Shown: positions 4,758-4,928 of the stretch, one piece after another | How the letters are laid out: the number at the start of each line of letters is the position of its first letter | Position numbering within the stretch: position 1 is the first letter of the stretch | From: Escherichia coli | Lineage (GTDB): Bacteria > Pseudomonadota > Gammaproteobacteria > Enterobacterales > Enterobacteriaceae | Reading direction: 5' to 3' (one strand) | Assembly: GCF_003334305.1 (NCBI RefSeq) | Contig: NZ_QOWS01000002.1 | DNA: 64,000 nt | Program-made: the position numbers and the translations under genes | Notes under the pieces: generated by a model | What the model was told of the DNA's origin: nothing | Databases searched by the model: none | The model's input: only the letters and a program-made list of their open reading frames with translations

Positions 4758-4771
4758 TTGAGCGAAGTCAA
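4758..4771 (+). promoter_or_regulatory. FNR box (TTGAG-N4-GTCAA) of fnrS promoter
   Basis: Matches 8/10 of TTGAT-N4-ATCAA consensus, centred about 42 bp upstream of the fnrS 5' end (class II position). Confidence 0.5.
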
Positions 4772-4806
4772 TAAACTCTCTACCCATTCAGGGCAATATC
4801 TCCATT

Positions 4807-4928
4807 GCAGGTGAATGCAACGTCAAGCGATGGGCGTTGCGCTCCATATTGTCTTACTTCCTTTTTTGAATTACTGCATAGCATAATTGATTCGTACGAC
4901 GCCGACTTTGATGAGTCGGCTTTTTTTT
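4807..4928 (+). ncRNA. fnrS: FnrS anaerobically induced small RNA
   Basis: Sequence GCAGGTGAATGCAACGTCAAGCGATGGGCG...GCCGACTTTGATGAGTCGGCTTTTTTTT recognised; terminal hairpin with U8; between zntB and dbpA as in K-12. Confidence 0.8.

Follow-up and report, generated by a model that had tools for sequence, protein, structure and literature searches.

The interval 4743-4928 of the window, by which we mean the whole 64,000-nucleotide stretch of Escherichia coli DNA that was analysed, is almost certainly the chromosomal fnrS locus of this species, consisting of the standard gene and its FNR-type promoter. The fnrS gene found here, which encodes a small regulatory RNA induced by the oxygen sensor FNR, is an already known and well-studied gene with a known promoter. 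It is intact, and there is nothing new in it. The gene is said to have been discovered in two studies, Durand & Storz 2010 and Boysen et al. 2010. The features of the locus are as follows.

4743..4746, plus strand: A-tract, positions -64 to -61, 5' of the FNR box
4758..4771, plus strand: FNR site TTGAG-CGAA-GTCAA (TTGAGCGAAGTCAA), read from the sequence and identical to K-12
4794..4799, plus strand: -10 hexamer CAATAT, positions -13 to -8, with an invariant G at 4793 immediately 5' of it
4807..4928, plus strand: fnrS small RNA gene, 122 nt, ends taken from the K-12 b4699 annotation
4807-4924, plus strand: match to Rfam family frnS (RF01796), 135.1 bits, gathering score 60
4813..4844, plus strand: stem-loop 1 (nt 7-38), from the Rfam consensus structure and the minimum free energy (MFE) fold
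4853..4867, plus strand: C/U-rich linker (nt 47-61, CUUACUUCCUUUUUU), unpaired in the Rfam consensus and largely so in the MFE fold
4868..4893, plus strand: stem-loop 2 (nt 62-87), from the Rfam structure and the MFE fold, paired in 98.9-100% of cells
4901..4928, plus strand: Rho-independent terminator, an 8-bp GC-rich stem at 4901-4920 followed by eight U at 4921-4928, located by a terminator scan
4986-5159, plus strand: ynaL, annotated small protein gene, 57 aa, proline-rich, in the zntB-dbpA gap

The fnrS gene and its RNA

The whole 64-kb window was scanned against all 4,227 Rfam families at their curated thresholds, and five matches were returned. The match at fnrS covers positions 1-119 of the 119 positions of the RF01796 covariance model with E = 3.8e-24. 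Base-by-base comparison of 4807-4928 with K-12 fnrS found 121 of 122 bases identical. The statement in the first-pass annotation that the fnrS sequence is intact is thus borne out by the full-length model match as well as by the K-12 comparison. The assignment of +1 to 4807 is based on the annotated 5' end in K-12 together with position 1 of the Rfam model. The gene is flanked by zntB upstream and ynaL-dbpA downstream, in the same order as in the curated K-12 MG1655 record. Across the 274-nt zntB-ynaL gap there are four differences from K-12, at 4803, 4804, 4884 and 4976. The first two correspond to promoter positions -4 and -3, reading CA here and TC in K-12, and the last is located downstream of the fnrS terminator. 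No difference falls in the FNR box, the -10 region or the terminator, nor in the 5' end or linker of the RNA, all of which read as in K-12.

Of 5,426 complete E. coli genomes, 5,393 contain the zntB-ynaL intergenic stretch, each of them once or at most twice, and the fnrS stretch (4740-4930) has a single copy in every one of these 5,393. It is noted that the other 33 genomes have zero match to the fnrS stretch, and that six of the records matching the locus carry a plasmid label, though the locus is core chromosomal. Positions 1-10,986 of the window align without gaps and at 100% identity to E. coli strain H15 (NZ_CP010178.1).

In a 100-sequence alignment, the pairs of the Rfam secondary structure are formed in 94.2% of cells, compared to 30-40% after shifting the partners by 1-3 columns. 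Five of the eight pairs of the terminator stem show compensatory double changes across species, among the matches listed. Stem-loops 1 and 2 are both essentially invariant and so carry no information on covariation; stem-loop 1 also served as the seed of the cross-species search. It should be mentioned that the RNAalifold consensus pairs the FnrS 5' end differently from Rfam, and that the folding energy of the RNA is ordinary given its base composition (z = -1.65; 11 of 200 shuffled sequences fold equally well). The linker at 4853-4867, which we take to be the region of mRNA pairing and Hfq contact, is identical to that of K-12.

The single difference within the RNA, at window position 4884, is C78U, situated in the internal loop of stem-loop 2. 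The 61-mer around this position is rare, being found in identical form in just 10 of the 5,393 E. coli genomes (H15, A7, A28, TUM1887 and others). C78U was considered as a fold-changing allele and rejected as such, the predicted MFE structure being identical and its energy of -32.8 kcal/mol the same with either base. At nt 78, U is the base of the Rfam consensus, and other species have U or A. Based on this modelling, C78U is regarded as a presumably neutral lineage marker. The rarity of the U78-bearing 61-mer, together with the two promoter-proximal bases that differ from K-12, could be taken to mean that the locus is decaying or altered, with C78U or the CA at -4 and -3 impairing RNA stability, target pairing or promoter activity. 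We consider this highly improbable. The C78U change is confined to an internal loop, leaves the predicted structure and energy the same and agrees with the Rfam consensus base; positions -4 and -3 vary freely among species; and every element from the FNR box and -10 hexamer through the 5' end and linker to the terminator is that of K-12.

The FNR box and its conservation across species

The sequence at 4758-4771 reads precisely TTGAG-N4-GTCAA, the intact pair of half-sites that the first-pass annotation had described. It matches 8 of 10 bases of the consensus TTGAT-N4-ATCAA, and the TTGA and TCAA cores are both intact. The centre of the box, at 4764.5, is -42.5 relative to the +1 at 4807 placed by K-12 homology; the earlier estimate of about -42 is right. 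The assignment to class II also stands, since -42.5 falls within the class II FNR range of -41.5 ± 4 nt (Myers et al. 2013, PMC3688515). The same study places an FNR ChIP-seq peak upstream of K-12 fnrS, with the site at -42.5, and lists the gene as directly activated (Myers et al. 2013, PMC3688515).

The fnrS promoter lacks a recognisable -35 hexamer, and a promoter scan of 4600-5100 found no sigma-70 consensus promoter. The absence of such a consensus fits an activator-dependent class II promoter, although it is not positive evidence for one. The 59 nt spanning the FNR box and the -10 hexamer are identical in 4,104 E. coli genomes.

The bare TTGA-N6-TCAA core is not enriched in the window, where three copies are found versus 1.9 expected, a number equalled in 31 of 100 shuffles. 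Because the presence of the motif alone is not significant, positional conservation was used as evidence instead. The two other exact cores are located at 37075-37088 and 57520-57533 (TTGACACGTTTCAA and TTGAGAACCGTCAA), and their number is consistent with chance.

FnrS loci of other species were fetched with the pattern of stem-loop 1 only, which leaves the promoter outside the search. The seed scan gave at least 120 loci, among which 104 carry GCAGGTGAAT directly 5' of the seed and were accepted as genuine Enterobacterales FnrS loci. They include loci from Citrobacter, Enterobacter, Serratia, Yersinia and Pectobacterium as well as from Dickeya, Erwinia, Pantoea, Hafnia and Edwardsiella. The promoter counts cover the 99 genuine loci with full flanks among the matches listed, and 16 chance matches to the seed from unrelated phyla, also among the matches listed, were used as controls. 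At the offset seen in the window, the exact TTGA-N6-TCAA core is present in 75 of these 99 listed loci, and a box with no more than one core mismatch in 97; in the remaining two of the listed loci the box is displaced by one base. None of the 16 listed controls has an FNR box. The fixed offset in 97 of 99 species versus 0 of 16 controls indicates that the box is not a product of chance.

Conservation across the 99 listed loci forms a footprint that takes in the two half-sites, the GCAnnnT of the -10 region (4793-4799) and the RNA, while the 22 bases from the box to the -10 vary freely. Within the -10 region, G4793, C4794, A4795 and T4799 are invariant in the 99 species among the matches listed.

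The variation found inside the box also has a direction. In the Erwinia/Pantoea group the box reads CTGATCGACATCAA, with its other positions nearer to the TTGAT-N4-ATCAA consensus. In Erwinia, Pantoea and Mixta (loci L016, L017, L027, L029, L054 and others), CTGATCGAYATCAA replaces TTGAGCGAAGTCAA at a distance of 59 nt upstream of the seed. These boxes have lost the first T of the core, and both inner positions are those of the TTGAT/ATCAA consensus. CTGATCGAYATCAA is a lineage-specific variant of the FNR box with its offset unchanged.

These data also bear on the reading in which the palindrome at 4758-4771 arose by chance, or serves mainly another regulator of the CRP family, for example CRP itself. 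CRP and ArcA reportedly also affect fnrS expression (Durand & Storz 2010), and such effects would agree with that reading, as would the match to just 8 of 10 consensus bases and the lack of enrichment of the core motif by itself. However, the half-sites TTGA and TCAA are of the FNR type and not the CRP-type TGTGA and TCACA. The box keeps one offset in 97 of the 99 species listed, and its variants, such as TTGAGCAATATCAA and CTGATCGACATCAA, drift toward the FNR consensus. We therefore assign a negligible probability to chance or to another main regulator, and retain the palindrome as an FNR box.

Upstream of the FNR box, a short A-tract at 4743..4746 is conserved as well and stands out as a peak in the column-wise conservation. 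Among the matches listed, 98 of 99 species have A at -62, 85 have it at -63, 84 at -61 and 77 at -64, and the bases flanking the tract vary freely across the 99 listed Enterobacterales species. In a class II promoter, the alpha-CTD of RNA polymerase sits at about this position, upstream of the activator dimer. The A-tract may tentatively be viewed as an UP-like docking site for the alpha-CTD, roughly two turns of the helix 5' of the FNR dimer, where it could add to an anaerobic induction of the fnrS promoter that is unusually strong and tight; we put this somewhat below an even chance.

Overlapping reading frames, neighbouring small RNAs and annotation

Four open reading frames (ORFs) overlap fnrS.

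4805-5023, plus strand: ORF, 72 aa, TTG start
4815-4886, plus strand: ORF, 23 aa, ATG start
4780-4884, minus strand: ORF, 34 aa
4659-4814: ORF, 51 aa

None of the ORFs overlapping fnrS is annotated in either K-12 or H15. It could be argued that the interval encodes a small protein, through the 72-aa or the 23-aa ORF, and that FnrS is an mRNA or a dual-function RNA. Both ORFs do exist in the sequence, a Shine-Dalgarno-like AGGUGA immediately precedes the AUG at nt 9, and codons 1-16 are conserved from species to species. However, this N-terminal conservation is an invariance of nucleotides at all three codon positions, which is a pattern of RNA-level conservation, and the AUG is enclosed in stem-loop 1, with the AGGUGA adjoining it immediately. 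Across species, the linker that joins stem-loops 1 and 2 measures 26, 27, 28, 29 or 30 nt, so the frame is lost; the ATG ORF varies in length from 17 residues to over 45, and its C-termini are unrelated. In most species CCG or TCG stands in place of the TTG that starts the 72-aa ORF, and the stop codon of the 23-aa ORF in the window arises from the rare C78U itself. A coding function is thus extremely unlikely, and FnrS is best read as a non-coding RNA.

The first-pass annotation had treated the ORFs in these intergenic stretches as spurious and the stretches as explained by small RNA genes. Over fnrS this is correct, as neither frame nor start is conserved. It does not extend to the whole gap, in which ynaL is a real gene that starts 58 nt past the fnrS terminator.

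The same annotation had placed three small RNA genes in the first 10 kb of the window, and both the Rfam scan and the K-12 comparison locate all three there. The models for FnrS, MicC and McaS match the three intervals at full length and far above their thresholds, and the K-12 coordinates of the three genes map to the same intervals. The features of the two neighbours, and the other two Rfam matches, are as follows.

1336..1429, minus strand: mcaS small RNA gene, 94 nt, between abgR and smrA, identical to K-12 b4426 at 93 of 94 bases
1334-1429, minus strand: match to McaS (RF00115), 117.6 bits, gathering score 42
9738..9848, plus strand: micC small RNA gene, 111 nt, between ompN and ydbK/nifJ, identical to K-12 b4427 throughout
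9735-9855, plus strand: match to MicC (RF00121), 125 bits, gathering score 90
51821-51884, minus strand: match to RydC (RF00505), 92.5 bits, gathering score 48
52444-52595, minus strand: match to sok (RF01794), 109.7 bits, gathering score 59

McaS and MicC here are the standard K-12 small RNA genes. For McaS, the coordinates 1336-1429 and the identity proposed earlier are right; the strand, which had been left unstated, is minus. For MicC, the identity and the start were also right, but the end given as 9847 is one base short of the 9848 of the K-12 annotation. The sole difference of mcaS from K-12 is U27C at window position 1403. This base lies in the linker that joins the first two stem-loops, right after a GGA (nt 24-26). 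The ORFs that overlap McaS and MicC are short ones of 41-59 aa. The sok match is the antitoxin RNA of a hok/sok type I toxin-antitoxin locus.

At 7576/7577 in the window, at the 3' end of ttcA, the two sequences that border the 23-kb Rac prophage in K-12 are joined directly. The strain has an empty Rac attachment site. The absence of the Rac prophage accounts for the spacing of fnrS and micC, which are 5 kb apart here and 28 kb apart in K-12.

Among the matches listed, RefSeq automatic annotation has no feature under fnrS in any of the 30 E. coli genomes, and fnrS is named only in the curated K-12 record. The missing label is an annotation gap and not a biological one. Since the RefSeq gene tables leave fnrS out, a covariance-model pass adds information to them. 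The abgR-smrA, zntB-ynaL and ompN-ydbK gaps are explained by known Hfq-dependent small RNAs, so that the ORFs called across them can be disregarded. It should also be mentioned that therapeutics engineered from E. coli Nissle widely use the fnrS promoter as a hypoxia-inducible part, where the cross-species footprint of the FNR box, the -10 and the A-tract may have a small practical use.

Proposed regulation and comparison with known systems

Following work on K-12, the locus would operate as follows. Under anoxia, the dimeric [4Fe-4S] form of FNR would bind TTGAG-N4-GTCAA and activate transcription from the class II position, and the transcript would end at the U-tract 4921-4928. Hfq would then bind FnrS, and the linker and the 5' end of the RNA would pair with the ribosome-binding regions of mRNAs that are not needed anaerobically. 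Such pairing would block translation of the targets, sodB, gpmA, cydDC and iscR being examples, and lower their mRNA levels. FnrS could in this way act as the repressing arm of the FNR regulon. The published record agrees on the main components: FnrS is under FNR control, is Hfq-dependent and pairs with iscR (PNAS 2024, PMC11572966), and its published targets include sodB, gpmA, cydDC and, most recently, iscR (PMC3688515, PMC11572966).

Compared to K-12 fnrS (b4699), the locus in the window has the same neighbours and an identical FNR box, -10 hexamer and terminator. It differs by C78U in the RNA and by the two bases at -4 and -3, and the known functional elements are untouched. Its two small RNA neighbours, MicC and McaS, have no relation to FnrS in their sequence, their regulators or their targets, and McaS is encoded on the opposite strand.

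The promoter resembles the class II FNR promoters of dmsA, narG, nirB and ydhY in having a single FNR dimer site over the -35 position. Like them, it lacks a recognisable -35 hexamer. The centre of its site, -42.5, is the same as that at ydhY and lies one base 5' of the modal -41.5 of class II promoters. The product, in contrast, is a non-coding RNA, whereas the other class II FNR promoters drive operons for respiratory enzymes.

A parallel in logic is provided by RyhB. In both cases a single small RNA, Hfq-dependent and acting by base pairing, gives a global transcription factor an indirect regulatory arm, and the targets of the two RNAs overlap at sodB and the isc operon (PMC11572966). However, RyhB is unrelated to FnrS in sequence and family and is encoded at another locus. 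It is repressed by Fur and de-repressed by iron starvation, whereas FnrS is activated by anoxia.
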